Part shown: positions 1 to 59,982 of the stretch, piece after piece
Layout: every line of letters starts with the position of its first letter
Numbering within the stretch: position 1 is the stretch's first letter
Origin: Naegleria gruberi
Lineage: Eukaryota
DNA length: 64,000 bases
Direction: 5' to 3' (one strand)
NCBI GenBank assembly: GCA_000004985.1
Contig: GG738898.1
Program-made: the position numbers and the translations under genes
The notes under the pieces: generated by a model
The model's database searches: none
The model's input: only the letters and a program-made list of their open reading frames with translations
Told to the model about the DNA's origin: nothing

Positions 1-530
1 TCAATGTTTATCAAACAAAGTTATTCGAAATATTCAATCTCTATATTTCCCAAATCTTTCATTACATCTCTAACTATTACTAAGCTACATTAAGAAAGAA
101 GCATTTCTAAACATTGACTTCAATTCGTTGACTTTCTATCCTAATTGTGACTGAAAGTCCACTCATTGAAATACAACTTGCGATCTATACTTGACTCTGC
201 ACAAACATTATGTTCCAGCAGAGTTGTACACAATTTTGGAAAACAACATTGCCATAACATATGTATCAGTAATAAGGATTGTTTGGTGAGGAGTGAGGAA
301 TATATGTAAGCGATTCTTTTATTTGGATCCCTATTGCTTACATTCAACATATTTGTAACAGAACTTCATGACACTTTTTACATCATTGCCACCTCATCAC
401 AATTTTGTAAACACATTCTCCACAACAACAACAACAGATCATCTTTGTCATCATCTTCCGATCAATTAAAAATAAATTCAATAAATTCTTTAGATGATGA
501 ACTTGTAAATTATTCATAGCAGCAAAAAAA

Positions 531-2611
531 ATGTGGAATATAATGGATCATATTTCGAGCGATCAGGCAAAGACCGTCACTGAGAAGGTTATTGATGAGG
601 AGGATGTTAGTAAATATTCGCATTGGTATTGTAGGGATGAAAGTCTTTTGAAGGAGGATGCGGAATCAAAGCCTAATGAAGAGGCCATCAGAAAAGTACA
701 AAATTCAATGATTTATTATTTGATCAGAGATGAAGAGACAAAATCGGATGCTGCTGATCAAAAACAACAAGTAGAAACAGAAACTGAAAAGACTAACGAT
801 GAAAACAATCAAGAAAAGAAAGAAGAAAACAAGGAAAAGAAAGAAGAAAAGATTCCGAATGATTTGTTTGAAATGGAAACAACTCAAGGAGAGGACGATC
901 TTGTTACGGTCAATTATAATAGATTGGGTCAGAAGGAAGAAGAGTTGGTCTATTTTACCATTCACATTCCAGATATTAAGAAGAAATTGTTGGTTTCTAG
1001 AGAATTACTATTGTTGGAAAGCAAGGTTTTTGAGGGAATGTTGAACAGTGAAATGTTGGAATCAAAATCAAATGAAATGACTCTCCAAAAGGAGCAAGCT
1101 CAAGAAGGTGAAAAATCATCATGTGAATACTTTGATTTGGCTATGGAATTTATTCATGTTGGAAAATTGGGTGTTTCCAAAACTTCATTCAATGAAAATG
1201 TTTCCAATATTATTGAATGGAAAGACTTGTTGGGTTTACTGAGAATTGCTGACGAATATCAAATTGAAAGTTTATCGAGAGCCATTTCAAGAGTTGTAAA
1301 TCAATTCAATGCTCTCACTATTGGAATTACTTGTTTGGAATTTTCAGCTGATTGTAAATCCATCATCTTGCCAAACGTGTGTGATAATTTGGCTTTCAAT
1401 CCAGCTTGCGTTGTATCGGATATGGTTTATTCTGGAATACCAATTGAAACTGCAAACCATGAAGAGGTTAACCAATACTTGGAAGATCCAAAACTTGCAC
1501 TCAAAGAGTATCCATTCCTCGATAGTAATTTAGCTCCTCCAACTTTGCACAAGATTCTTGCAACACCACTTGTGCAACCACTCGCAAAGATTATTATTTC
1601 ACTTCCAATTGAATTATTTGAAGGAATGATGACATCACCTTATTGCGCTCTTAAACAAGATCCAAAGATGGCATTCATTGTTTTGTGGATGCTTCAAGAT
1701 GTTGAGAATAGATATATTGATACTTTTAGATTATTGAAAAGTGTTGATTGGAGCTTGTGTGAAACTGAAATTCTCTACACACTCATCTACTTTGTATTTA
1801 TAGGAATTGGAAAAACATTGCCACAACATAAGAGTATTTGTGGAGAGGCTCACGACATGCTACACATGTCCATGTTTAGAAAAAATAATACTCTTTCTGA
1901 TGAGGATTGGTCAAACTATCTCACCAAATTATTTCCAGAAAGAGAACAAGGCAAAATCAGTCATCTACACAAGGAGTTGAGATTCTTGAATCTTGGAATT
2001 GATGCCTCTGGTAAAACAACACTTCTGTACAAACTTAAATTGGATGAGGTTGTCACAACTGTAAGTAATTTATGAGATTGTAATATTTCTTATAATTTAT
2101 AGATTCCAACCATTGGATTTAATGTAGAAACTGTAGATTATAAGAATGCCAAGATTACCATGGTAAGTTAAAGTATTGATTTTGTTATATTGACTTTAAA
2201 TAGTGGGATGTTGGTGGTGCTTACAAGCTTAGAGCTCTTTGGAGACACTATTACCAAAACACTAATGGCGTAGTTTTCGTTGTGGATTCTAATGATAGAG
2301 ACAGATTGGAGGAAGCAGCTGATGACCTCCACAAATTGGCTAAAGAAGACGAGCTCAAAGATTGTCCAATTTTAATTTTGGCTAACAAGCAAGACCTTCC
2401 AAATGCTATGAGTGTCGCAGAAATAGCAGACAAGATGAAATTAACTTCACTTTCACAAAAGAAATGGTTCATTCAAGCATGTTGCGCTCTGACTGGTGAA
2501 GGATTGTATGAAGGTCTGGAATGGGCTGTTGAATCATGTAATGTGAAACTTGTGAATACTCCAAAGGGTAATCTTCAAAAGTTCTCTCATTTCGGAACTA
2601 TGACATTTTAA
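531..2611 (+). CDS. BTB-domain/ARF-like small GTPase fusion protein. Exons: 531..2060, 2103..2162, 2204..2611.
   Basis: Exon 1 has an acidic/Lys-rich N-terminus and a BTB/POZ-like block (VYFTIHIPD...[19 protein letters not shown]...[13 protein letters not shown]). The ARF G1 motif [14 protein letters not shown] ends exon 1. The introns are gtaagt...tag (42 nt) and gtaagt...aatag (41 nt). Exons 2-3 read [20 protein letters not shown]|[16 protein letters not shown]...ILANKQDLP...CALTGEGL, which is ARF switch I/II with NKxD and SA(T) motifs. Stop TAA at 2609-2611. A-tract precedes ATG 531. Confidence 0.8.
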
Positions 2612-2788
2612 AGAACGCTTAATATATTTACTTTAATTTCTATTTACCGCAATTTATTTCCCCAAGTATCGAATAAGATGAAGTTGAGTTCTTACAAAGG
2701 AAATACTTTATTCTCTCGAAATGATTCGGTCAATATTAACACTAATGTGTACACTAAAAATTGATAATTTTGGATGATATTTCACAAC

Positions 2789-3193
2789 TTAACACCATCT
2801 AACACCTCCAGCACAACCATATCCGGCGCCATAACCATAACCACCATAATAAGGAACAGCTCCATATCCACCATAATATGGAACTCCATAACCTCCATAT
2901 CCACCATAGAATGGCATTGAGTAAGCACTTCCATAATTATTTCCATAACTTGTTGGACCAACATATGAAGATCCATAACTTGAGTATGGATTTGAGTTGA
3001 CAGCATTAATTTGATTCAAATAGGATTGAGTGTTTTGAGCATATTGATTGTAATTTCCTCCAGTGACTCCATAGTTAGAACCAGCACCTCCATATGAACC
3101 ATAATTGTTGCCATAATTGTTGCTATATTGGCAGTTGACCAAGCATGCAGCTAAGAGAAGAGTTGCGACAAGAGCAGTGATGAATTTGTTCAT
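2789..3193 (-). CDS. Small secreted Gly/Tyr/Asn-rich protein (signal peptide plus GYG repeats)
   Basis: ATG at 3193. N-terminal hydrophobic signal MNKFITALVATLLLAACLVNC, followed by YGGYG/NYG low-complexity repeats. Confidence 0.55.
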   Translation of the reverse strand: MNKFITALVATLLLAACLVNCQYSNNYGNNYGSYGGAGSNYGVTGGNYNQYAQNTQSYLNQINAVNSNPYSSYGSSYVGPTSYGNNYGSAYSMPFYGGYGGYGVPYYGGYGAVPYYGGYGYGAGYGCAGGVRWC

Positions 3194-5947: not shown

Positions 5948-8450
5948 TTGAAAATGAGTCAACCACCTTCCGAACCAACTCAACCAGTATCATCATCACA
6001 GTATGTAGAAAGTCTACCAATTCCAGAGGAATCATCACCAAGATTTAGATCAAATTCAAGGTCTCGAGATGGACCACTCTCTCCTACCTTCCAAAAGATG
6101 CCAGCCGATGTTTGGGATTTATCCTCTGAACACCATTCGAAAAAAGCTTCTCTTCCAAAATCACCATCAAGCTTATTAAAGGGATCTAACTGCAATTTGC
6201 AACAAATTGGAAAAACCAACTCATCATCTCAAGTTACACATCATTCAAAGACAAAATTAACTTTGGACATTATTCGTAAATTGCCAAAAGCTGAATTGCA
6301 CAGACACTTGGATGGTTCTGTTCGTGTTGAAACCATCATTGAACTTGCCAAGGAACAAGGTGTCGATTTGCCATCATTTGATGTTGAAGAATTGAGAAAA
6401 CTTGTCTCTGTTACAAATGATTGCACTTCACTTGTTGAATATTTACGTGGCTTTGATATTTCCCTCTCTGTCATGCAAAAGAGATACAGTATCACACGTA
6501 TCATGTACGAAGTTTGTGAAGATGCTGGAANNNNNNNNNNNNNNNNNNNNNNNNNNNNNNNNNNNNNNNNNNNNNNNNNNAGGTATGAGACAAATGGATA
6601 GCAAGATTACCTTGCAACTTGCAGAAATTGCTTGGCGTTACAGAGACCGTGGTGTCTGTGCCTTTGACTTGGCTGGGCCAGAAAATGGCTTCTCCTCAAA
6701 GAACCATGCTTCTGCATTTGAATTAGTTCATCGTAAAATGTTGAACTGCACTCTTCACTCTGGTGAAGCCAGTGGTTGGGAATCTATTCAAGATTCAATT
6801 CGTTATTGTGGTGCTAATCGTATTGGTCACGGAACTCACTTGAAGGAAAATCCAGACCTCACTCAATATGTTGCCAATCACAGAATTCCAATCGAAATTT
6901 GTATCACCAGTAACTTGCAAACTAAGGCCATTCAAAAATTCGAAGAACATCCAGTTCGTGAATTCTTTGATTATGGTATTGTACTTGTTCCATGTACTGA
7001 TAATACTACTGTTAGTAATGTAACACTCTCTGAAGAATACTTGTTAATTCAAAACCAATTCGGATTTGATGTTAAGGAAATTGTCAAACTCATTGATTAT
7101 GGTTTCCGTTCTGCATTCTTGGACTTGTCTATTAAGAACAGACTCCGTGCTGATGCTCTCCATACCATTCAAGAAATCCTCTCCAGTGAAGGATACGACT
7201 TGACAAGTAGTTTCTCTGCCAAGTCTGCTGTTGATTTGGGCTTTGATTTCAACAATAGAGCTGAAATTCTCCCAGTTGACTATGATCTCTACAAGAATGA
7301 AACCATCAGACAATTCATCAATTCCATTCCAAAGGCTGATGTTAACTGTCGTTTCAATGGTTCAGTTTCTGTTGATACTTTGTGGACAAACTTGTCACAC
7401 GATGAATACTCTACCGATTTCCTCAATTTGGAATTGGAATTATTAGGATTGGGAAGAATTCACTCCAAGAATGAATTGGAATGTCTTATTAGACCACCTG
7501 GAGCCAAGCATGACAAGTCAACAATTGCTCGTGCCATTCAAGTCATGTCCTTGTTCTTACAAACTAAGAGTCAAATTATTCATGGTTGTGAAGATATTTT
7601 AGAAAAGGCTGCTGCTGAGCATGTCTTTTATCTTGAATTACAAGTGAGACCAACTATGCACACCAAGAGAGGTCTCAGTGCTCAAGAAGTTTTGGATGTC
7701 ATGGTTGTTACTATCAATGAATGCAGCAAGAGATATAATATTCAAGTTGGTCTCGTTGTTTATGGTGATTTTACTTCCGATGGTTTGGACCAATTGAAAG
7801 AACTTTCCCTCCTCACCATTAGAAATAAGAAGAATTTGGTTGGTTTTGGTTTCTTTGGATACAATGATGAAAAGGGTGCTATCCTCCCTGAATTAATCCC
7901 AGTTTTCAACATGTTGAAGAATCATCAAATTAACGTTTGCTGTTCTGCTGGTTTCTATAATCCTCTCAGTGTCATTCCTGCTATCCATGATGTTGGTGCT
8001 TCTAGATTGAGTGGTTGTTTCTCCATCCACTCTTCTCCATCTGTCATGAGCTACTTGTGTGACAATGGTGTTCCTATTGAAATTTCCATGACTGATACTT
8101 TGAAGAATCTCACAAAGGAAGTTAATGAATTTGCTGGATCTGCTGTCAGATTATTCTTGGATAGAGGTATCAAGGTTGCTCCATGTTCACTCGATTTGAC
8201 CTTGTACGATATGAATCGTTCTGAAAATATCTACTTGATGTCTAAGGAATGCAATTTGAGTTTGAACGAAGTTGTTCAACTCATGTTAATTGGTTTCCGT
8301 ATCTGTTTCCAAAACTATTGGACTCGTAAGGAAATGTTCATTGGTGCCTATCACACAATGTTGAAATTGGTTGATAATTTGAAACTCACATTTGACACTG
8401 ATTCATTCTCCCTCTTCTGTTCCTCATACAATCCAGCGGAAAAGGATTGA
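5948..8450 (+). CDS. Adenosine/AMP deaminase-family protein with tandem ADA-like domains. Spans the 50-N gap at 6531-6580, which causes an apparent frame change.
   Basis: Domain 1: LPKAELHRHLDGS (His-His metal site), LHSGEASG (HxGE), NRIGHG, VPCTDN. Domain 2 (about 7300-8450) has the same fold-order motifs but is degenerate: CRFNGS, CCSAGF, RLSGCF, SMTDT. The N-terminal 100 aa are Ser-rich. Stop at 8448-8450. Confidence 0.75.
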
Positions 8451-8694
8451 TTCTAAATTAACTTTAAATTATAAATATTTATTGTAAAAAATATTAACAC
8501 ATCATCATGGTGTCACTTCTTCTCAGTATTAAACTGAACAGTTATCTGTTAGGAATGCTTTCTCTCTTATACTATCTACTCTATTACTTTGGATCGAGAA
8601 AACCACAAATTCCGAATCAAAATCTTCTCGGAAAGAACAAACAACAAGCAAAGAATCTTCTCCAACAACACAAATTGGACAGCCATCACCAACA

Positions 8695-9537
8695 ATGGAT
8701 CCACTCACTGCTCAAATTCAATTCACAAAACGACCAATTCTCTACATGTCTCGTTTGGGAAAGGTTTTATTGTCTAACAAGTGGTTCCGAGTTGTGTGTG
8801 GAATTTTACTTTTGGCTGGTTGTGATGTTTTGGCTTGGATGATGACAGTTTCATGCTTGGTGGTGACTGGATTTGTGCTGTATGGAGTTTCCATGTTCAG
8901 AAAGAGAAAGGAATGTAGTATTGCGCATGGCAAAGACGAGCAAGATATTGAATGGTTGAATGAAACTCTTGGTGGCGATATTTCATTGGTGGATGATGCA
9001 CTTGGTCAAGTAATTGAGAGTTGTAAGAGTGAAAAGAAGAGTTTGATTATTGTGGGAGTTGGATTGGGAGCTGTTTTGAAGAGATTGGAAAAATTAAATC
9101 ACTTGATGGAACAATTCGAAAATGTGAAAGTTTTGGAACCAAATGAAACAATTATTAGAAAATGCAAGGAAATAGCAACAAGTAGTAAGATTGAATTTTT
9201 GAGCTGTGAATATTTGGATATTTCCAAATGTTCAGCCGATATTGTCATGTTACAAATGGAATATTTGAAGCATTTAGACAACAAGTCAATTGCTCAATTA
9301 ATTCAGAATTGCAGAAATATTGCAAAGGTTGGATTGATTATTGGTGATTTACAAAGATCAAATTTTATTGGCATGCTTACATTGATCAATGTTGGTTCCT
9401 GTATTTCTACTCATGATTTATTAACTTTGAGTGAGTGGAATAACTTTTTGAATCGCCAAGTTAAAGTGGAAACAAATCAAATCTCGAGTGTTTGGACATT
9501 CGGAAGAACTACCTTGATGGTGAGTGGAAATATTTAA
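8695..9537 (+). CDS. Hypothetical membrane-anchored protein with a Rossmann-like GxGxG motif
   Basis: ATG at 8695. Two N-terminal TM segments, then LIIVGVGLGAVLKRL. No confident family. Its stop overlaps the stop of the convergent gene 9534..10532. Confidence 0.45.
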   Translation: MDPLTAQIQFTKRPILYMSRLGKVLLSNKWFRVVCGILLLAGCDVLAWMMTVSCLVVTGFVLYGVSMFRKRKECSIAHGKDEQDIEWLNETLGGDISLVDDALGQVIESCKSEKKSLIIVGVGLGAVLKRLEKLNHLMEQFENVKVLEPNETIIRKCKEIATSSKIEFLSCEYLDISKCSADIVMLQMEYLKHLDNKSIAQLIQNCRNIAKVGLIIGDLQRSNFIGMLTLINVGSCISTHDLLTLSEWNNFLNRQVKVETNQISSVWTFGRTTLMVSGNI

Positions 9538-10532
9538 CAGCACTTTGAATCTTCAGTCAAGAGGCAAGTCTTCTTCACATAGTGATAGAGTATTTGAGAT
9601 TCTTCGTATCTGTATGATTTCCACGATTCTACTAACTGAGTGATCCATTCCTTGATTAATAATTGTTCAGATTCAGTTAGTGAATTGTCTTGAATGAAAG
9701 ATTCAAAGAAGCTCTGATTTTCCAAGTATTTAATTGGACAATCTCTTAGTGAAATCCATTCTTCTATCATATTCTCTTTCATAGCTTGGTTCAATTGAGC
9801 AGAGAGTTTGCTCTTTAGAGATTCCACCAACTTTCCAAAATTCATACCGATTGGAATAATTCGATTTGTCAATTGGCAATGCCTTTCCAGCGATAATTCA
9901 AAAACTCTTTCCATAGAATCTAATGAATCCACAAATAAATCCTCCAAACCTTCGCACACTACATCATCCAACAATACTACAGCTCGATAGGCAAACCAAT
10001 TTCCAATCTCTGGATGAAAACTCAAATACGAAATTCCATTCTCATAAAAAGCAAAACCAGAAACCTGGCCAGCTACTTGAATGGCGACTCTCGGATAATT
10101 TCCAATAAATTCATGGCTGTAAAATGTTGAAGTTGGTTGTTTTTCATCACAACTTTCCATTACTTTTTTCACACAATCCATCGTATAGGAATCGAGTGGA
10201 TTCTTCTGCTGTAAATTTCCATTCTTATCAATCAAATGATTCTCCACAAGATGACCCTTGAATTTAGGCCATAAATTCTTTGTATTTCCAATCAAAATGG
10301 CTACACAATCATCATCGGAATTTGAATTTTTCTTTAATTTTTCATACGGTTTCAACAATGTTTCTGGAGTTTTCTGTTGTGATTTATAATATTGATTGTA
10401 TCTGGAGAGTGGAAATGGTTGGAAAATATCAAAACCACACTCGGCAAGTTTAGCTTTGGCTTGTGTTAAAAAATTACGAGCTTGACATGCTTTCATTTTT
10501 TTAATTTGGGTTTTGTTGTAATCCAAACTCAT
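9534..10532 (-). CDS. MMACHC: MMACHC (cblC)-like cobalamin-processing protein
   Basis: ECGFDIFQPFPLSRYNQ aligns with human MMACHC CPFGFEVYPFQVAWYNE. HPEIGNWFAYRAVVLLDDV aligns with HPRFGGWFAIRGVVLLPGI. ATG at 10532 overlaps the upstream stop (ATGA). An alternative start is Met14. Confidence 0.75.
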   Translation of the reverse strand: MSLDYNKTQIKKMKACQARNFLTQAKAKLAECGFDIFQPFPLSRYNQYYKSQQKTPETLLKPYEKLKKNSNSDDDCVAILIGNTKNLWPKFKGHLVENHLIDKNGNLQQKNPLDSYTMDCVKKVMESCDEKQPTSTFYSHEFIGNYPRVAIQVAGQVSGFAFYENGISYLSFHPEIGNWFAYRAVVLLDDVVCEGLEDLFVDSLDSMERVFELSLERHCQLTNRIIPIGMNFGKLVESLKSKLSAQLNQAMKENMIEEWISLRDCPIKYLENQSFFESFIQDNSLTESEQLLIKEWITQLVESWKSYRYEESQILYHYVKKTCLLTEDSKCC

Positions 10533-11617
10533 TCCAGGAATGAAAACACAACTTCCAATACCTCACCTGGCAAATCACCAATTAATGGAGCATGTCTATT
10601 GGCAATCAGTAGCAGGAGATTAATCATTGCTCTCTTCTCCTTTGAGAAATGTTGATGCAATTCTCGCATCCAGTAAACACCTTTAAAAACTGGATATTGA
10701 TTCGAATCAAAACCAGATTCATTCGAGGTGAATTTGGCTCTATCATTGCTCACTGATAAGATCTTCTTACTGGATCTTCTTGAAGGACAGTTCGCTTTTA
10801 TATCCAAATTCTCAGAAGAAATTCCAAAATTCTTCACTCTATCATTATCCCACTTCAGGTATGGCAAATAAATCAATGCATGATTATTGAAAATATGGTA
10901 TAATTCTGGATCAAAAAAGAATTGACTATCAGTTTGCCCCTTTCCCTGTAAAAGCAATAGATTTTTTCTGGAACACATTTCTACATGATTATCAGAAAGA
11001 GCTACATTCCAAACTGACATTTGGCTCATAAATCCTTCATAATAGCCACTACCTGGGTGGCCTATCATAGAATATCCAATACAGAGCTTATTTTGCAGAG
11101 GTGGATCCAACATCTTCAAATCACTCAAATGCACCACGTCCAATTCTCCATTAATATAAAATCTCATTTCTCCCTTCTTAAAAGTCACACAACAATGATT
11201 CCACTCCCCAATTCTAACACTCCTTCGACTGCTCACACAATTGACCCCCACAGCAACATCATCCCTTCTCGAACCAAGAAACCTCACCTTATCCATATGC
11301 AAATCAAAACCAAAGCCTGCAAAATTCTCTCCAGCCACAGAAGAATCAAAAATTCTAATATCTCCATGTTTTGTAGGATGAACCCAAGCCATCATGGTCA
11401 ACTCATCAAAAGGCTGGATCATCATCTCGGAGGGAACTTTCATTTCATAATACAAATTAACCTCAGAACTAAACTCGAACACACTATTAATTCCCGAGTG
11501 ATTCATATCATGTAAATCTTCATCATCTTGTTGTCTGGTGCTGTCGTTGTAGAGGGCTCCTACAAACAAGGCTCTTACAAAGTTTGAGTTGGAAACTTGA
11601 TGGGCTCGTCGACTCAT
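10529..11617 (-). CDS. Concanavalin-A-like (LamG/SPRY-type jellyroll) domain protein with a C-terminal F-box-like motif
   Basis: ATG at 11617. Jellyroll-type block ...WVHPTKHGDIRIFDS...GFGFDLHMDKVRF...GEWNHCCVTFKKGEMRFYINGEL. Ends ...LPGEVLEVVFSFLE, which looks like an F-box start, immediately before TGA at 10529-10531. Confidence 0.55.
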   Translation of the reverse strand: MSRRAHQVSNSNFVRALFVGALYNDSTRQQDDEDLHDMNHSGINSVFEFSSEVNLYYEMKVPSEMMIQPFDELTMMAWVHPTKHGDIRIFDSSVAGENFAGFGFDLHMDKVRFLGSRRDDVAVGVNCVSSRRSVRIGEWNHCCVTFKKGEMRFYINGELDVVHLSDLKMLDPPLQNKLCIGYSMIGHPGSGYYEGFMSQMSVWNVALSDNHVEMCSRKNLLLLQGKGQTDSQFFFDPELYHIFNNHALIYLPYLKWDNDRVKNFGISSENLDIKANCPSRRSSKKILSVSNDRAKFTSNESGFDSNQYPVFKGVYWMRELHQHFSKEKRAMINLLLLIANRHAPLIGDLPGEVLEVVFSFLE

Positions 11618-11761
11618 TTTTTTTATCTCTTAATTTCTCTTGATTTGGAAAGTTTACAATGAACTTTGAAATTGGTTGAGAGGTCAGTAGAGAGATTTGA
11701 ATCAAATTATTTTAAAATTTGTTCATAATCGATTGAATCGTTTAATGATATATTAAATATT

Positions 11762-12663
11762 TTACAATTTCTTTTCAATTCTAAAAGAGGAAATTAATTG
11801 AGTGACCTCTTCATTATTATAAGATTTGAATTGACCACTCCATTCCATTGGGAAACGATCCACCAAGCATGCAAGAATTTCACCAATCTTTTCAGGACTT
11901 TCCAATTCCTTATTTTCATGCAAGTTGACGAAATTTTTGTAATCCTTCATTGATTCCACATTTCCTACTGTTCTAATTTGTTCTTGCATTTGAGTATCGA
12001 CAACTCCTGGTCTGATACTCAATATTCCGACTGGTTTCTCTTGTTTTCTCTCCTCCAAATCGAGACACATTCCAAAATGATTGAGAGCTGCCTTTGAAGT
12101 GCAGTAAGCTGACCATCCATCGATAGCTCTTGTGGCTGCTCCACTGCTTACTAAGAGGATTCTTCCACCATCTGGCGATTTTCTCAATTCTGGAAGACAG
12201 TAATGACACAATTGCATGACACTGATCAGATTGACTTGAAAAACTTGATTCAAATCAGTAGCTTGTTCATGATTCCATTGAGAAATATTCTGAATAGGTC
12301 CAATCACTCCTGCATTGCACACCAATCGATCCACTCTCTTAAAATTCCTCATTGCAAAATTAAATATTTCCAAAGATGGATCTTTACACTATTATCATGT
12401 GATGAAACTTTTTCCACAATTTTATCACTCTCCCGATCAATGAATAATTCAACGGTAGAAGAACAGGTAGGTTGTGATAAATCCACACAGATGGCTGCTG
12501 CTTCACCTCCGAGTTGGTGAATATCCTTCAGAGAATTTTCTAATTTTTCTTTGTTGGATCCTGTTATGACAACTGTGTGTCCATGCAAACAGGAGAGTGA
12601 CTTGGCAATGTGCAATCCGATTCCTCTCGATGAGCCAGTTACAATGGAAACTAGTTTTTGCAT
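11762..12663 (-). CDS. Short-chain dehydrogenase/reductase (SDR). Exons: 12388..12663, 11762..12337.
   Basis: Exon 1 carries TGSSRGIG (TGxxxGxG). The intron is gtaaag...tttaag (50 nt). Exon 2 carries RVDRLVCNAGV (NAG) and YCTSKAA (YxxxK). Phases are consistent. Confidence 0.75.
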
Positions 12664-12744: not shown

Positions 12745-15532
12745 TTACAAAACAAAATTGAGAAGGACAATCAAGAAGGCACCAATAAGGAGTGAATAGA
12801 AATTCTTAGGTGCCTTGCTGAGGACCATTTCCAATTCTGTTTGTTGGATATTGAAAGTGCTTGAAATGACCATACTGAAATTTTGATCGCCGACATTGTT
12901 TTCATTTGCCATGACGTTTACAGTGCAAATGTCACTCTTAGTAGTAAAGTACACCTGTTCGACAGTATTAACCTTGTCCAACATTCCATTCCCTAAATAT
13001 TCTTCACCACCCGTACAATGAACAGAAAGATCCAAATCATTGATTAATTTGGTAACATTGGAAGTCATGTCTGATTGAGAAGCTCTATCATACCATGTAA
13101 GAGTAATCTTGATAGCATTCCTAGCTTCGAAAAGGAAGGTATAGGATTTCTTTTGTCCTGGTGAAATTGGTTGTCTATTCAAAACTCTGAGAGTATCTGG
13201 ATTGGAGAATTTCATAACAGTGTCCAAACTAACTGTACCATAACCATAAATAGGATTTGGAGAAGAATAACTTGAAATATCAATGGAAGGATCAGTGAGA
13301 GATGAATAGATGGCACCTTCAACTGGAAGTGCAGAGTGAATAAGGAAGGCCTTAATCAAAGTACCTGACACACTCAATGTTTCATTCTCTCCCAAAGTGT
13401 TATTCAAATTGAAATATCTCAAACGTTCATAATTATTAGCAGTGAGATATTCTCTAACAAGTGCAGCCGAACCCGACTAAATAACACCATGTGCCAAATT
13501 CAGTAAATACAATAACTTATTAAAGTAAAAAATAATAGAAATAACATACGACACCTGGTGTTGACATTGATGTTCCGCTCAATGCCACAAAGTCACAAGT
13601 TGATCCACTCTTTGCAGACATTATGAAATGACCTGGGGCCATAACATCTGGCTTGTTTCTTCCATCCATGGTTGGACCTTTTCCTGAGAAGAGAGGCATT
13701 CCCATACTGAAAGTTGAATACTTGCTTTCACATTTGGAGGCACTCATTGAGGTAGAATTACAATAGGATGTGTAATAGTTGTGAACTGCTCCGACAGAGA
13801 GTAAATTCTTGGCTGTTGCTGGAGCTGAAATACTTTCTAAAAGTGAAATATTGCCACTGTTACCTGAAGCTTGGACAATAATCATGTCATCGTGGTCATA
13901 GAGGAATTGATCCATCAAACTTGCTTGGTCACTGTAGCCAAGACATTGTTGGTGACATTTCACACCCTTCTCTGCCATGCATTCAGTGTCATTGACTATG
14001 GCTCCTCTTTGTCCATTCTGTTTCAATCGGTAACAAACTCTGTTATAGTCGCAAGAGTAACTTGAAGGTTTGCATCCCCAAGAGTTGGAGTGAATTCTAG
14101 AGCCAGCCAAATTGTAAGCTCTATTTAACATTCCTTGTAAATCATAGTTTGATGCCACAGAACCATCAGCACTTGAAGAGAAATCAATCACATAGAGTTT
14201 TGCATTCTTGGCCACACCATTTCTTTTCGACATTGAACTGGAAGGATATCTAGATGACAAATCACCAGCAATAATACCAGCAACGTGTGAGCCGTGTCCA
14301 TTGGTATCAATCATGTCCATTCCTTCAATACCAACAACCTTTTTATGATTGAAATTAATGGATGTATAGTTGGTTGCATTCTTATCGTAGAATAAACAGT
14401 GCTCTACAGAAATTCCTGTATCAATATAGGAAACAATTTGATTCTTTCCTGTAATTCCGTTATCCCAAATGGTTGATCCTAATTCTTCAATTCTTCCTCC
14501 TTGAACAACATTGTTCATTCCCTCATCGAAGAGTTGAGTTTCAGTAGCTCTGGAAACATGGATAATTGACTCATCAGAGGAAAGTTGTTCATAGAGAGAT
14601 TGGGCTAATTGTACATTCAAATTCTCAAGCATTCTTCTATTTCTTGTTGGTTCAGACTCCACTTCAATGAATTGATTTGGGCTCAATGAAAATAACTTAT
14701 TTCTTGGGTGGAGGAGTTGAGTGAGTGAAAAATCAAACTTTCCGCTCAATTCCTTATTCATCCATTCAGTATTGGATTCAAAGGTTGATTCTAATCCTCT
14801 CACTCTGGACAATTCACTTTCAGACATACTCCTTACAGTGGTTCTCACTCGCTTGTTTACTTCTCCCTTTAACCAATTCGAAAGCTTTCTCTCTGAAAAT
14901 CCATGAGATGTTTCAATCAAGAGTGGAGCTCTACTCAATGATAAAACATCACTAATAGGAATTGAAATTCTATGAGAGGAAGGAACTCTCTTAATCCACT
15001 CAATATTCAATGATTTCATTCTTGATGAAGCCAAAGAGAGAATAACCTTCGGAGTTGCTAGTACCTTAAAGATTCTATTGTTTGTTCCGTATTGTGGTAC
15101 AAAGTTCTTGTCAAAGTTTGATGTTTTCTTCATCAAATCATTTTCCTTATTATCATCGTTGTTTTCAAAGGCAAGAGCTATTTGTTGGAGAAGTGAATCT
15201 TTCAAAAGGACTCCATCAGCAATTTTAATATAAGTCAATAAGTAATCATTCGGTCTATCAAAGAGCATTGCTTTGTATTGTTCAATATTAGAACTAATTG
15301 AAGTTGAAGCAACTTTCACTTGTATCTTTGTTTGATGATGAAAGGAGAGAAATAATTTGGCCAAACAAGGACCCACCGATTCAAATCTTGATATTTCTGT
15401 TGCATTTACATTCCCCAACAGACAGAACAACACAACGATCATCATCATTGCAACAATTAAAAAAGCAGAAGTAACACCTCTTCCGCTGTTGTTACTCGTC
15501 CTCATCCTCTTCTTCTTCTCTAATATCTCCAT
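12745..15532 (-). CDS. Subtilisin-like serine protease (peptidase S8) with N-terminal signal/TM. Exons: 13550..15532, 12745..13476.
   Basis: Catalytic triad contexts DTGISVEHC, HGSHVAGIIAG and GTSMSTPGV|SGSAALVREYL, where the Ser motif spans a 73-nt intron (gtatgt...tttag). ATG at 15532. Confidence 0.85.
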
Positions 15533-22344: not shown

Positions 22345-22804
22345 NNNNNNNNNNNNNNNNNNNNNNNNNNNNNNNNNNNNNNNNNNNNNNNNNNTCTCTG
22401 CTTCAGGTAATTGTACTTTGTTTTCAATATCAATATTAACATCGTCCATTAGCTTTTCTTTTTCGGAATAGCTTGTTCATAGGTTGGACTTTCTGGCATA
22501 AAAAAGTGAGTTGGGCCACTGGTAGGTTCATCAGCTTGGTCATCCTTGTTTCCTTCTACTGTTGTATCATCCTCTTCATCAGAATATTCTCTTTCTCTCT
22601 TGTTGAAAGAATTTAACATTTTAAAGATTTTTTTTAATTTTAAATTATCTTGTGAAATCATCTCACTTTTCCAAGTTGTCAACTTGCTCATCCTGCAGCT
22701 TAGAATTTGAAATAAACTAAAATAAAATAAATTAATCCAAGCAATAAACAACGTATCCATTCCAGCTCTTGCTCTATTAAGCTACATTTCGATTATTAAT
22801 TTGG

Positions 22805-33873: not shown

Positions 33874-34173
33874 GACATGAAAAGGGTAATACATAAATTC
33901 TAATTGTCTGTACATGCCATTCATTAGCCATAATTTCAAAGATGTCATTTGCCAAAGTCCATTCATTCAATAAAACCACTCTTTGAAATCATTTGGAATG
34001 CTCACTGTAGATGTATCCGTTGTGAATCACATATCCCACCCAAAAATCTTCAATACCTTTATAATAATTTTCCAAGATCTCATCCCAATTCTGAATTGTT
34101 TAACATTTTCACTTCTAGAACGAAGCAATTTCTAGCTAATGAACTTGGAAATTGCAAAGAACTTAAAAAAAAA

Positions 34174-37130: not shown

Positions 37131-37408
37131 AATTTGTATTACAATAAAGTTGTCAATTAATTGATTGATTCATTTCAATCTAACATCAATTCAATTAACC
37201 ATGCCANNNNNNNNNNNNNNNNNNNNNNNNNNNNNNNNNNNNNNNNNNNNNNNNNNNNNNNNNNNNNNNNNNNNNNNNNNNNNNNNNNNNNNNNNNNNNN
37301 NNNNNNNNNNNNNNNNNNNNNNNNNNNNNNNNNNNNNNNNNNNNNNNNNNNNNNNNNNNNNNNNNNNNNNNNNNNNNNNNNNNNNNNNNNNNNNNNNNNN
37401 NNNNNNNN

Positions 37409-37986
37409 ATGATAAAAGAATAAAGAATAGACCAATTTCAAGTTATCACCAGAATGGAGAAATAACTTGTTTAGAACGATCCTCAAATGGCCTGTTAGCA
37501 AGTGGTTCAACAAATAATTGTGTTAATGTTTGGGATGAAAGATCCTATAACAAGCCATTAAGCATCTACAAACATCCTAGTGTTGTTGAAAGCATGGCTT
37601 GGACAACAAGCAACATTCTATCAACTGCAATGAATAGAGAAGGAAGAGTTTTATTTTGGGATATTTCAACAGGTAATCTTTCATCAAATTTGCATACTAT
37701 TGACACACGTAGAGCAATTTCCTCTCTCGTTTGGTCAGGAAAGGATATTATAACATCATATAAGGAGTGTTTTTATATTCAATTGTGGGATGGTTTTGAC
37801 CAATCTCAAAAAAACAAATATCAAGCTTGTTTTTTGAAAACACCAAAAAATACCTATTTAACATATGGTCCAGAATCTTCCCTACTAATTGGTGCATCTT
37901 ACAATCAAATATTGTGTTGGTCATGTGAGGATAAAACAAAGAAAACCAAAATAATTGATTCATCCTTCTTAAGAATGTTAAGATAA
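37409..37986 (+). CDS. WD40-repeat protein (5' partial, start lost in the 202-N gap at 37207-37408)
   Basis: WD-like units ...LASGSTNNCVNVWD..., ...REGRVLFWDISTG..., ...IQLWDG... Stop at 37984-37986. Confidence 0.6.
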
Positions 37987-40504: not shown

Positions 40505-41725
40505 TTAAAGATTGCTATAGTAATTTTCATAATAATCATCAACATTCTCATAGCTATAGATATACTGAGAATCGGTAAAATCTTCCTCCCTCTGACTGTC
40601 ATCCAAATAATCTTTAAATACATTGAGAAATGGCTCAATGTTTCCATCTGGATTATGACCTTTCTTTGAGTTGTGATCTTCAATAATGGCAAAGTAAATT
40701 CTATCGAAATAACCTTCATACTTTTCCAGTTGAGTTTTAAAAGCTTTTGCCATCTGATTAGGGTTATTCTTAAAGGCCCCACATCCAAACGCAGACAATA
40801 CCAAATTTCTAACACCATTCAAAATGGCCACCTTGAATATTGCCTCAATAGTTCCATTGTTTCGTCCATCAATTTTTTCTGTATTTTTCGATTTGTTTGG
40901 TACAGCAGCTGCAGTAATGACATCCAATAATCTTGGAACTTGCAAGAGTGGATAACCTTTTGCTTCGCACCCTCTGAAAAACAATACATTTGGTGAGAAG
41001 CATGCACTCTCATGCCCAATAGGATAGCTCCACTTTCTATGTTTATCCAATTGATCAACCTTATTATCCAAACATTGATACAAGTTAGATCTTCTGAATA
41101 GATTTTCCTCCTGAGCTCCACCTATTTTCATTCAAATAACTTGGTTATTAAACTACTTACAACCTGATTGATAACCACCTCCAGGAGTATTTGGATTGGC
41201 CATATTGAGAATGGCTACTCTCTCATTTTGCATCTTTCCACTCTTTACCAATTCATCCTGGATCTTGAATGCAACATCCACACAATCTCCATTAATTACC
41301 AAAACTCTAGTCTTTTCCTGAATACTATTATCAGAAGAATTCAATGTAGGAATCACCTGCCCCTCATTTCTAATAAACAGTGTTCCAACACTCGACTGAA
41401 TCATCAACTCTTCCTTCAATGAAACCTTTTCTACAATTTCATCATCATCAATTCGATTTTTAGAATTTCTATGATTTTTAAAATTGTACAAATAGTATTG
41501 ATCCCTACAAATATCAATCGTTTGTCTCTGAACAAGTATTCGGAGCCTTTTAATTTTCTTATAATCAGCCTTTTCTAGACAATCATCATATTGATTTCGG
41601 AATTGAGAGGGATCATAGGGATAGGTATTAAAAGTTGAATGTTTCTTGTGGAAATCATCAACTTGAAAGAAAGAGGTGGGACAATTCGAGTGTTTTTTGG
41701 TGGAGAAATTGTTGGAGGTGATCAT
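40505..41725 (-). CDS. Microbial-type poly(ADP-ribose) glycohydrolase (DUF2263/TIGR02452-like macro-fold). Exons: 41161..41725, 40505..41121.
   Basis: The PARG signature spans the 39-nt intron (gtaagt...aaaatag, phase 1): ILNMANPNTPGGGYQSGC|GAQEENLFRRSNLYQCL, matching GGG-X6-8-QEE followed by (L/S)xRSSxLY. ATG at 41725. Confidence 0.75.
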
Positions 41726-51937: not shown

Positions 51938-54900
51938 CTAATGATGATTTGGATCAAAAACGATTGGACCAATACAATTGACAAGATTTTGGTAATTAGG
52001 ATCACGAGTATTGTTTGCATGACTTGCACTGGCCTTTTTCTTTTCACAGGCCTTTCCCAACATCATCATTAAAAGTTCCTTTGAAAGATCTTCATCAGAT
52101 TCATCATCTGGAGCAATCATTTCGAATACTCTTTCCATAATGGAAGGATACAAACGTAAAAGATCGTATGAATCTACAGAATGACCGTACATGGCCTCAT
52201 CGAATGGTTCTCCTTCTCCATAACTGTCACAATCAGGAGCAACAAAGCATAATGGTAAGACACTTTCAATAAATCTCAAAATACAATGTTGATGACTTGT
52301 AAGACCAGTAATTTGCCATGTTGGATGTAATTCATCATCTTTTTCTTGGTCATATCTTTGAGAAGATAATTCTGCTTGTCTCTTTCTTGCATCCTCCTCT
52401 TCAGTTTCATTAAAGAGTTTTTTCACACGATTGGCTTCAGATCTTTCAATTTTAGAAATTATCAATTTGACACAAGTATCATGGAAAATGTAGAGGAATC
52501 TCTTGTGTTTTCTTTCAGATGAAGGAATGGACTTGATCTCAGGGAGATGTTGATACAATGCTTGTTCAGTCATTTTAAAAACACCCAATGCTTTCATAAA
52601 AGATTTCTCATTAACCTCTTGCATTTGCTTCTTTGTGAGCTTGGTAACTCCTTCAATGTAGAGAATTGGAAGATCATTTTGAGGAGCACACTTGCAAATT
52701 CTATCAGAATGTCCAGTACAGCATTTTCTATAAAGATCATGAAGGGACATGTCCGACAAGTGAAGGAATTTACAATTCTTTCCATTACCACATGATTGAA
52801 TAGAACTGTGCTTCATGCAAACCTCGGTCTTTTTTTGAGGAGCTTGAGGTTCAGGAATAATTTCTACAACTTCCTTCTTTTTGCTCTTTGGTGTGGTGAG
52901 TGGAGGAAATTCGTCAGGATGTTCCTGTTGATACTTGATATAGAATGATCTGTCGTGTGAGTATGGGCAAATTCCAGATCCAAATTTACACTTTCCTTTA
53001 AAGTGATCTCTACAAGGTTTGTTATAACCCTCCTCTTTAGCTTCAGTTTTAGTTTTGGTTTCAACCTTTTCCACTTTCTCAGGTTCAGGTTTTTCCTTCT
53101 CTTCCTTTTTAGGTTGTGGTGTTGGTTCATTCTTCTTCTTGTTCTTATTTTTCTTGGAATTTTTGGAAGAAACTGGTTGTGTTTGGGTTTGTTTTTTGGT
53201 AGTCTTTTCACTTGATTGAATTTCTGCAGGAACACTCTCAAGCACACTGAAAGAGTTTGATGAAGATGCTAATGGTATCTTGTCTGGAATTTCCTCGAGG
53301 ACTTTCTTCTTCTTACCAGAAGATGAGGTTGTAAACGAATTATTTTTGGATTTGGAAGAAGTGTCCAAATTTCTCAAATATTCCAACTCAAATTCTCTTT
53401 GAAGCTTTTTAGCCAACTCTTCATCAAGTTTCTCTTGTTCACTCTTTTCCTCCTTCTCTAGTTTTGGTGTTTCCACGAGCGGCTTTACTTCCTGGGCAGC
53501 TTTGGCTTTATCATTCTTTTTCTTGGATTTGGATTTTTGTGAAACTGGTTGTGGCTCTGGTTTTTTCTTGGCTGACTCCTTATTCTTATCACTAGGTGTT
53601 GTAGAATTGATTTCAGGGGTGCTGACTACTGTTNNNNNNNNNNNNNNNNNNNNNNNNNNNNNNNNNNNNNNNNNNNNNNNNNNNNNNNNNNNNNNNNNNN
53701 NNNNNNNNNNNNNNNNNNNNNNNNNNNNNNNNNNNNNNNNNNNNNNNNNNNNNNNNNNNNNNNNNNNNNNNNNNNNNNNNNNNNNNNNNNNNNNNNNNNN
53801 NNNNNNNNNNNNNNNNNNNNNNNNNNNNNNNNNNNNNNNNNNNNNNNNNNNNNNNNNNNNNNNNNNNNNNNNNNNNNNNNNNNNNNNNNNNNNNNNNNNN
53901 NNNNNNNNNNNNNNNNNNNNNNNNNNNNNNNNNNNNNNNNNNNNNNNNNNNNNNNNNNNNNNNNNNNNNNNNNNNNNNNNNNNNNNNNNNNNNNNNNNNN
54001 NNNNNNNNNNNNNNNNNNNNNNNNNNNNNNNNNNNNNNNNNNNNNNNNNNNNNNNNNNNNNNNNNNNNNNNNNNNNNNNNNNNNNNNNNNNNNNNNNNNN
54101 NNNNNNNNNNNNNNNNNNNNNNNNNNNNNNNNNNNNNNNNNNNNNNNNNNNNNNNNNNNNNNNNNNNNNNNNNNNNNNNNNNNNNNNNNNNNNNNNNNNN
54201 NNNNNNNNNNNNNNNNNNNNNNNNNNNNNNNNNNNNNNNNNNNNNNNNNNNNNNNNNNNNNNNNNNATTAAAAGTTGTCCTCCATTTGGGTTATTGTTCA
54301 TTAAACCACCACTAGCCGAGTTACTCACTCCAAGACCATTGTTGCCTGTTGTATTAAATCCAACAAGATTATTTCCACCACCAATATTATTATTCCATCC
54401 AAGAGCACTATTTGTATTGCCCATAGATAGATTTAGATTATTAAATTGTTGTTGTTGCTGTTGTTGAAAGGCTCTATTTCCAAAATCATTGTGAAATGAT
54501 GATAACAGGGAGCTAGAAGGATTGTTCAAATTATTGACCAATCCGCCATGTAAACCACTACTTCCACCAGTGTTTAAATTACCAGTCAGGCCATTATTAA
54601 AGGAGTTGTTACCCAAATTATTATTCACAAGGCCATTGTTGACCATATTTCCCATGGGAGGAGCATTCATTACATGATTCCTTGTGCCAATAGGTTCTGT
54701 TGTAGAGGAACCCAACAAGGACAATCCAAATGGATTTGAATTTGTATTTGTCAAATTACTATTGGATAAATTATTATTATTTCGTAAGAGATTGCTTGCT
54801 AAATTGTTATTATTACTCGGAGAATGAGAGAATAACTTGTTATTTCCCAATAATTGAAAGCCATCATTATGTGGATTATTCGTTGATATTGGTTGTTGTT

Positions 54901-55372
54901 GAGAAAGATTCAACAGAGAGTTATTATTATTCGTATTATTGTTTGTATGTGGCTGTACAAAGTGAGAATAATTCATTCCTGGAATGAGATTATTTCCTCC
55001 CAGAATTGAATTGTTGTTGTTATTATTATTATTACTATTAACATTATGATTGGTATTAGTGTAGAATAGACTACTTTGAAATCCATTCATCATTCCGTTC
55101 GTTGCTGCTGTTGGAGATGAAAGACTTGAATTTGGTGTAATATTATTATTATTTGGTTGTTGTTGATGAAGGCTATCGAGGAGACTTTTTCTATTGTTAT
55201 TCATCATGATGGAGGATGGGGAGGAATTATGTCCAATGATACCTTGTTGTACACCAACATTCAAATGAGGTGTTGTCTGTTGTGTTGGTGGTGCTCCCGA
55301 GATTGCATGTTGTTGTTGCTGATGATTTGGATTTCCAAAGGGATGAAATCCTGCTGTTGAAGGATTGAACAT
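51938..55372 (-). CDS. Tandem CCCH zinc-finger protein with a long N/Q-rich prion-like N-terminal region. Interrupted by a 633-N gap at 53634-54266.
   Basis: ATG at 55372. Poly-N/Q tracts. C-terminal CRDHFKGKCKFGSGICPYSH and CMKHSSIQSCGNGKNCKFLH (C-x8-C-x5-C-x3-H, twice), plus a conserved-looking C-terminal domain. Confidence 0.65.
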   Translation of the reverse strand: MFNPSTAGFHPFGNPNHQQQQHAISGAPPTQQTTPHLNVGVQQGIIGHNSSPSSIMMNNNRKSLLDSLHQQQPNNNNITPNSSLSSPTAATNGMMNGFQSSLFYTNTNHNVNSNNNNNNNNSILGGNNLIPGMNYSHFVQPHTNNNTNNNNSLLNLSQQQPISTNNPHNDGFQLLGNNKLFSHSPSNNNNLASNLLRNNNNLSNSNLTNTNSNPFGLSLLGSSTTEPIGTRNHVMNAPPMGNMVNNGLVNNNLGNNSFNNGLTGNLNTGGSSGLHGGLVNNLNNPSSSLLSSFHNDFGNRAFQQQQQQQFNNLNLSMGNTNSALGWNNNIGGGNNLVGFNTTGNNGLGVSNSASGGLMNNNPNGGQLLXXXXXXXXXXXXXXXXXXXXXXXXXXXXXXXXXXXXXXXXXXXXXXXXXXXXXXXXXXXXXXXXXXXXXXXXXXXXXXXXXXXXXXXXXXXXXXXXXXXXXXXXXXXXXXXXXXXXXXXXXXXXXXXXXXXXXXXXXXXXXXXXXXXXXXXXXXXXXXXXXXXXXXXXXXXXXXXXXXXXXXXXXXXXXXXXXXXXXXXXXXXXXXXXXXXXTVVSTPEINSTTPSDKNKESAKKKPEPQPVSQKSKSKKKNDKAKAAQEVKPLVETPKLEKEEKSEQEKLDEELAKKLQREFELEYLRNLDTSSKSKNNSFTTSSSGKKKKVLEEIPDKIPLASSSNSFSVLESVPAEIQSSEKTTKKQTQTQPVSSKNSKKNKNKKKNEPTPQPKKEEKEKPEPEKVEKVETKTKTEAKEEGYNKPCRDHFKGKCKFGSGICPYSHDRSFYIKYQQEHPDEFPPLTTPKSKKKEVVEIIPEPQAPQKKTEVCMKHSSIQSCGNGKNCKFLHLSDMSLHDLYRKCCTGHSDRICKCAPQNDLPILYIEGVTKLTKKQMQEVNEKSFMKALGVFKMTEQALYQHLPEIKSIPSSERKHKRFLYIFHDTCVKLIISKIERSEANRVKKLFNETEEEDARKRQAELSSQRYDQEKDDELHPTWQITGLTSHQHCILRFIESVLPLCFVAPDCDSYGEGEPFDEAMYGHSVDSYDLLRLYPSIMERVFEMIAPDDESDEDLSKELLMMMLGKACEKKKASASHANNTRDPNYQNLVNCIGPIVFDPNHH

Positions 55373-59782: not shown

Positions 59783-59982
59783 TTTTTTCTGGCAGTTTTT
59801 ATTAGAAATATTGAGTTTGGATTTTGAGAATTATTAGAAATTATCCTTATTTGGAAAATTCCAAAATTAGTCGTTCATCATAAATCAGAACTTATTACAA
59901 GAGAGAGGAGGATGATGCAGCTGTCAACTAATATACTATTCCTTCAACAATTAAAATTTTTATTAGAAATTATTAAAAAAAA

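Follow-up and report, generated by a model that had tools for sequence, protein, structure and literature searches.

Two open reading frames (ORFs) lying in tandem on the minus strand of a Naegleria gruberi contig share the four nucleotides ATGA, so that the stop codon of the first overlaps an ATG at the head of the second. The upstream ORF encodes a Laminin G-like (LamG) protein and the downstream ORF a homologue of MMACHC. This raises the question of what the overlap represents: a single fused gene hidden by an error or read by a frameshift, a pair of genes coupled in translation, or two separate genes of which the second has been given too early a start. The DNA that we analysed, here called the window, is a stretch of 64,000 nucleotides from N. 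gruberi NEG-M (contig GG738898.1), with a G+C content of about 34% and four runs of N, typical of a draft assembly. The reading that we prefer, with a probability of roughly 0.85, is that the ORFs are two independent, intronless tandem genes, that the LamG protein ends naturally with FSFLE followed by the stop, and that MMACHC begins at Met13 of its longest ORF.

Results and Discussion

The two reading frames and their junction

The features of the locus are as follows.

10529..11617, minus strand: LamG gene (Laminin_G_3 / ConA-like), 362 aa and a TGA stop
10529..10532, minus strand: ATGA tetranucleotide, made up of the LamG TGA (10531..10529) and the upstream in-frame ATG (10532..10530); ATAA in the sister strain
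9534..10532, minus strand: longest MMACHC ORF, 332 codons, beginning with ATG 10532..10530 and reading MSLDYNKTQIKKMKACQ...
10497..10528, minus strand: spacer of 32 nt, separating the LamG stop from the probable start of MMACHC
9534..10496, minus strand: homologue of MMACHC (cblC-type cyanocobalamin reductase), 320 aa counted from Met13 (ATG 10496..10494) and a TAA stop
9534..9537, both strands: TTAA, the overlapping stops of MMACHC (minus) and the convergent ORF 8695..9537 (plus), 4 nt

The domains originally predicted for the two ORFs, ConA-like and MMACHC, are both borne out by Pfam matches above the cut-offs: Laminin_G_3 (PF13385) at residues 69-212 of the LamG ORF with 65.9 bits (cut-off 27.6), and PF16690 at residues 100-198 of the MMACHC ORF with 38.4 bits (cut-off 27). 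The LamG product is 100% identical to N. gruberi NEG-M XP_002672401.1, and its C-terminus is LPGEVLEVVFSFLE, followed by the TGA at 10531..10529. Neither the 332-aa nor the 320-aa MMACHC product was found in the public protein collections searched, which suggests that the NEG-M reference protein set lacks an annotation of this gene.

On the minus strand the junction reads ...GTG TTT TCA TTC CTG GAA TGA GTT TGG ATT..., and the predicted stop/start overlap is indeed present, at 10529..10532. The overlapping ATG starts one base before the LamG TGA, and the MMACHC frame is -1 relative to that of LamG. There are 1029 copies of ATGA in the window, slightly below the number in shuffled sequences, and a second long ORF (531..2075) likewise ends with ATGA. 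The overlap is no commoner than chance predicts; by our own estimate from base composition, a coincidence of this kind should arise in a few per cent of tight tandem pairs, the factors being an A in front of the TGA (about 1/3), a frame that fits (1/3) and a run of 11 codons without a stop (about 0.44, with stops at about 7% per codon). It is because the 11 codons between the overlapping ATG and Met13 happen to contain no stop that this ATG resembles a start. The overlap is thus only apparent, an artefact of choosing the longest ORF in a compact genome, and the ATG that overlaps the LamG stop would be an incidental, strain-specific in-frame triplet.

Comparison with a sister strain

A search with the MMACHC homologue led to a protein of 320 aa that is 99% identical to it (P0003), encoded on two independently assembled contigs from the run ERR1078381, one of 4.5 kb in an ENA metagenome assembly (L002) and one in a Logan assembly (L003). 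Over 4.5 kb, 35 substitutions and a few indels separate the ENA contig from the window, a divergence of about 0.8%. None of the indels falls within 9534..11617, and the two genes align co-linearly and without gaps, which means that the -1 frame relation is reproduced from the independent reads of another strain. The genes lie at 44..1132 and 1165..2127 of this contig, with MMACHC called from Met13 and a spacer of 32 nt, and the TTAA overlap of the MMACHC stop with that of the convergent ORF is also present.

The junction is where the two strains part. It reads CTGGAATGAGTTTGG in the window and CTGGAATAAGTTTGG in the sister strain, with a substitution at window position 10530 that gives GAATAAG: the LamG stop is kept (TGA to TAA), while the overlapping ATG has become ATA. 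MMACHC of the sister strain can therefore begin only at Met13, equivalent to 10496..10494 in the window. As the overlapping ATG is dispensable within the species, it is neither a functional start nor part of a coupling device. Metagenome scans with the MMACHC alignment and with a DNA pattern of the junction gave no further strains or closer species, and no contig turned up when the LamG and MMACHC products of the window itself were looked up as exact proteins.

The start of MMACHC

Met13 is preceded by aaattaaaaaaATG, giving the context AAAAAA-ATG. An A in all six positions before the ATG was seen at 7 of the 24 first ATGs of long ORFs, that of the LamG gene included, as compared to only 0.54% of all 2579 ATGs in the window. 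The orthologues start behind the same run of A, gaaaaaaATG in N. fowleri and taaaaaaaATG in N. lovaniensis, and their N-termini align with Met13 and not with Met1, the overlapping ATG. These two proteins are 40-41% identical to the query over 91-92% of its length in BLASTP and carry the UniRef name cyanocobalamin reductase.

The human protein, MMACHC or CblC (cyanocobalamin reductase/alkylcobalamin dealkylase), has an equivalent N-terminal length if the Naegleria protein is counted from Met13, and in the profile alignment its residue 10 stands opposite position 13 of the Naegleria protein profile. This profile matches the human MMACHC structures 3SC0, 3SOM and 9MRS with E = 3.6e-4, including the conserved hP.fGgWFa.R core; a single-sequence phmmer search with the MMACHC homologue gave no PDB match. 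The Naegleria homologue differs from the human protein in being very divergent, with Naegleria-specific insertions and a C-terminal extension.

One of the options in the original prediction was that of two genes with MMACHC initiated at an internal Met. The ATA of the sister strain, the A-run in front of Met13 and the N-terminal length of the orthologues all speak for it, with the correction that the Met is residue 13 and not 14. Translation of MMACHC would accordingly begin at 10496..10494, with an ATG that follows seven A in a row and lies 32 nt after the LamG stop.

It is conceivable that, in NEG-M only, some MMACHC is made from Met1 with a 12-residue extension, MSLDYNKTQIKK, and that the two genes in this strain truly overlap by 4 nt. 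Met1 is in frame with no stop before Met13, and scanning ribosomes would reach it first if transcription in NEG-M starts upstream of 10532. The start context of Met1 is poor, though, with one A in six positions (cctggaATGa), the triplet is ATA in the sister strain and the extension has no counterpart in the orthologues, and we regard such a product as unlikely. A Met1 isoform, if minor, is compatible with the two-gene explanation.

Transcription units in a compact locus

If the genes are independent, MMACHC would have a transcript of its own, with its promoter and start site inside the 3' part of the LamG coding sequence or in the spacer, and the LamG mRNA would receive its poly(A) tail after cleavage within the spacer or shortly past it. 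An ATTAAA (10505..10500) lies in the spacer, 24 nt after the LamG stop, and the seven A (10503..10497) that end the spacer immediately precede the ATG. Within 60 nt downstream of the stop, hexamers resembling AATAAA or ATTAAA were seen for 8 of 24 stops, as against about 9% of random 60-nt windows. The two transcription units would then abut or overlap slightly, as expected in a compact locus.

The DNA that MMACHC has to itself amounts to 32 nt upstream and -4 nt downstream. Other spacers in the window are 67 nt for a tandem pair (55440, 55372) and 68-69 nt for two convergent pairs, most being 70-300 nt; the 32 nt between LamG and MMACHC fall below those of 67-69 nt, and no other clear tandem spacing in the window is as short. 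The pair represents the extreme of the normal compactness in the window. It resembles the tandem genes of compact protists, which lie a few tens of bases apart with UTRs or promoter within the neighbouring gene. A search of the literature on bicistronic transcripts and on the lengths of UTRs and intergenic regions in Naegleria yielded nothing specific.

The short spacer, on the same strand and with no room for a conventional promoter and UTRs, could also be taken as a sign of a bicistronic mRNA, from which MMACHC would be made by termination-reinitiation at the overlapping AUG or at Met13, or by leaky scanning. The ATGA in NEG-M does resemble prokaryotic or viral stop-start sites, and it shares both the tetranucleotide and the -1 frame relation with prokaryotic operon coupling. 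Unlike such operons, this is a nuclear gene pair of a eukaryote, its ATG is not conserved within the species, and the true start of MMACHC has its own A-rich leader 36 nt downstream. The absence of the overlapping AUG from the sister strain counts against a bicistronic mRNA, as does the fact that the adjacency of the two genes is not kept in other Naegleria. Upstream of MMACHC there is, in N. fowleri, a divergent PPP5 gene at a distance of 326 nt and, in N. lovaniensis, a same-strand gene of 2317 aa at 166 nt; neither is LamG. The synteny of MMACHC to which the original prediction had turned is thus not found, the orthologues being stand-alone genes with different neighbours in both species.

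Reinitiation after an ORF of 362 codons is inefficient in eukaryotes, which also speaks against a bicistronic mRNA, and it is implausible that ribosomes would reach MMACHC by leaky scanning, given the many AUGs of the LamG ORF. A TURBS motif is defined by a UGGGA that lies a short way before the stop/start and is complementary to 18S rRNA; reading the 170 nt before the LamG stop, we saw no UGGGA. The folding of the junction RNA was unremarkable and no better than that of shuffled sequences (z = -0.19). A scan for bacterial promoters and terminators showed no enrichment, and is not relevant to a eukaryote. The Heterolobosea have a conventional gene organisation with about two genes per directon and without polycistronic architecture (preprint 10.64898/2026.07.29.740908), which is a further argument against a shared transcript. 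Taken in this broad form, bicistronic expression of the pair appears very unlikely, and slightly more so in the specific form of a natural bicistronic nuclear mRNA from which MMACHC is reinitiated 32 nt after the LamG stop without trans-splicing.

The coupling or frameshifting that the original prediction also considered thus finds no support, with an overlap that is not conserved within the species, no structured RNA and, as described below, no slippery heptamer.

The C-terminus of the LamG protein

The end of the LamG ORF had been thought to look like the first third of an F-box, with its remainder in the +1 frame at the beginning of the MMACHC ORF. Alignments of relatives place this stretch within a conserved module, for which two features are given.

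10532..10672, minus strand: conserved C-terminal module of the LamG protein (W316...E362)
10532..10573, minus strand: last helix of the module, the 'F-box-like' stretch

The module follows the pattern W-x4-H-x2-F-[PS]K..R...LLL...LPxE-hh-xx-hh; in the three small relatives described below LLL is followed by 10-14 residues and then [LI]P-x-[ED]-[IL][IL]-x-x-[IV].

The only close relative of the LamG protein, P0002, is 43% identical to it and comes from a metagenome contig (L001). It ends with LPSELIQVILSFIM-TAG (...HANLPSELIQVILSFIM-TAG), at a position homologous to the end of LamG. Downstream of it there is no MMACHC; instead a convergent 2OG-Fe(II) oxygenase gene ends 6 nt away, so that further exons would not fit. 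Among 1.84 billion representative proteins, a profile search revealed three small LamG relatives, P0021, P0038 and P0056; the search with the full-length LamG profile was dominated by giant proteins with multiple LamG domains, and 3305 LamG-containing proteins were found. The three small relatives share the C-terminal module and stop 4-8 aa after its last helix, and together with P0002 the range is 0-8 aa. After the LP there are 12 residues in N. gruberi LamG and 12-20 in the four relatives, and the three-helix unit of an F-box, which takes about 40-50 residues after the LP, was found neither in LamG nor in any of the four.

Profile comparisons gave the same picture. No F-box profile matched at E <= 10 the C-terminal 56 aa, the read-through in the LamG frame, the C-terminus of P0002 or two hypothetical fusions into the MMACHC frame, and the whole LamG protein had no F-box match in Pfam at E <= 1. 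A profile of the five C-termini compared with the PDB at E <= 10 found no F-box chain and nothing relevant, a word-indexed search with the alignment of the module gave no match, and the module has no match in Pfam and belongs to no named family. An AF2 model of the LamG protein, made from a two-sequence alignment, had a pLDDT of 31, too low for the model to be of use.

The LPxE-hydrophobic helix of LamG does resemble helix 1 of the F-box (PF00646 / PF12937). It also resembles the poxviral PRANC, a truncated F-box-like domain placed C-terminally, as the LamG helix likewise lies at the extreme C-terminus. Unlike the F-box, the LamG family lacks helices 2 and 3, and the helix is preceded by the conserved W-x4-H-x2-F...LLL. 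Judged by these sequences, the LPxE helix forms the native C-terminal end of an unnamed module and is not a truncated F-box, and there is no support for an F-box whose remainder would lie in the +1 frame. A downstream exon that would complete an F-box was considered as well and rejected; the MMACHC ORF and the convergent gene occupy the DNA in which it would have to lie, and the homologue P0002 ends at the same point.

Splicing, frameshift and recoding

A cryptic intron of 77 nt could in principle join LamG codon 350 in frame to MMACHC residue 15 and produce a minor fusion isoform without the C-terminal helix. Its boundaries would be CCAG/GTGAGG at about 10567 and AAAG/ at about 10491 (the slash marking the splice site); the GT...AG and a phase of 1 on both sides can be read from the sequence, and short introns of about 40-75 nt are present in the window. 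A match of frame, which one in three would show, is unremarkable when there are several AGs to choose from, and the GTGAGG...AAG of the cryptic intron differs from the two real introns that we inspected (GTATGT...TAG and GTAAGT...TAG). The intron would moreover remove a stretch whose protein sequence is conserved among four distant relatives, P0002 lacks a GT at the site equivalent to the donor, and no orthologue is a fusion. We consider this isoform highly improbable.

A LamG/F-box/MMACHC fusion hidden by a 1-bp assembly error or by a programmed -1 frameshift is barely credible: the ORFs abut with a -1 frame offset and LPxEVLxxVFSFL resembles helix 1 of an F-box, but two independent assemblies keep the frame relation with no indel, the LamG relatives terminate at the same point with unrelated genes downstream, the F-box profiles matched in no frame or fusion, and the orthologous MMACHC proteins stand alone. 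The assembly error put forward in the original prediction is refuted by the indel-free assemblies and by the distant LamG relatives that stop there. Upstream of the overlapping ATG only 10 codons are open in the MMACHC frame, and on reading these last 10 LamG codons we saw no slippery heptamer of the type X XXY YYZ; nor does the folding reported above point to a stimulatory RNA structure at the junction. Recoding of TGA was rejected, as the long ORFs in the window end normally at standard stops, and so was +1 frameshifting of the Euplotes type, for which both direction and motif are wrong.

Significance of the overlap

A bicistronic mRNA would, if true, mean operon-like coupling in a cellular eukaryote, of a lineage thought to be strictly monocistronic. 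With two independent genes, the biological importance of the LamG/MMACHC overlap is little, and the question of how a gene with 32 nt and -4 nt of private DNA accommodates its promoter and 3' end concerns Naegleria transcription units in general and is not specific to this site. The value lies in the annotation: MMACHC of N. gruberi should start at 10496..10494, giving 320 aa, and not at the overlapping ATG. The locus also illustrates that, where a eukaryotic genome is compact, the longest-ORF rule can make two genes seem to overlap when they do not, and that one polymorphism within the species suffices to resolve it.

The LamG protein and its C-terminal module

The LamG protein (XP_002672401.1), whose gene adjoins MMACHC, ends in a module that is also found in four of its distant relatives (P0002, P0021, P0038 and P0056).

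10532..10672, minus strand: unnamed C-terminal module

The architecture is that of small proteins with a single LamG domain followed by the module at the C-terminus, which has the pattern W-x4-H-x2-F-[PS]K..R...LLL...[LI]PxE-hydrophobic helix, and then the stop. The module had no sequence match in Pfam or PDB, and its terminal helix mimics helix 1 of an F-box.

MMACHC and the convergent ORF

The LamG gene is annotated in NEG-M. The reference protein set of N. gruberi NEG-M appears to lack the MMACHC gene (9534..10496, minus strand). A collection of 15 billion proteins has no entry for its product, either as 332 aa or as 320 aa, and the sole N. gruberi-like match there was the metagenome copy, P0003. 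The N. lovaniensis annotation of MMACHC (P0005, 8001..9612 on contig L007) is a spliced model of 472 aa. Its tail, about 180 aa of low-complexity sequence, is lacking in the N. fowleri and N. gruberi proteins, and this gene model is probably over-extended.

At the 3' end, the MMACHC stop overlaps the stop of a convergent ORF (8695..9537, plus strand) in a TTAA palindrome at 9534..9537, and the sister-strain contig L002 has the equivalent overlap between genes at 1165..2127 and 2124..3158. The convergent ORF is 344 aa in L002 as compared to 280 aa in the window, where there is also a separate 111-aa ORF (8507..8842) in another frame. The strains differ by one 2-nt indel and two of 6 nt at about 8485..8660 (L002 2990..3185), just upstream of the ATG at 8695, and this stretch is either a non-coding leader or contains an error in one of the assemblies. 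Within 8695..9537, 7 of the 13 substitutions change the amino acid.

Gene models and start sites

Two very short spliceosomal introns were observed, and an intron seems to interrupt the SDR gene (11762..12663) as well.

~13478..13552, minus strand: ~75 nt, GTATGT...TTTAG, subtilisin-like gene
~41121..41159, minus strand: ~39 nt, GTAAGT...AATAG, macro/PARG-like gene

There are four assembly gaps (N-runs).

6531..6580: N-run
22345..22394: N-run
37207..37408: N-run
53634..54266: N-run

Three of them fall within long ORFs (6417..8450, 37201..37986 and 51938..55372), and the gene models of these three are therefore incomplete.

Many genuine starts in the window can be recognized by at least six consecutive A immediately 5' of the ATG: such a run precedes 7 of 24 long ORFs as compared to 0.54% of all ATGs. 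Three examples are given here.

11618..11624: A-run before ATG
34165..34173: A-run before ATG
59975..59982: A-run before ATG

The A-run before the MMACHC ATG is also present in N. fowleri and N. lovaniensis. Such runs are a useful signal for calling starts in Naegleria annotation.
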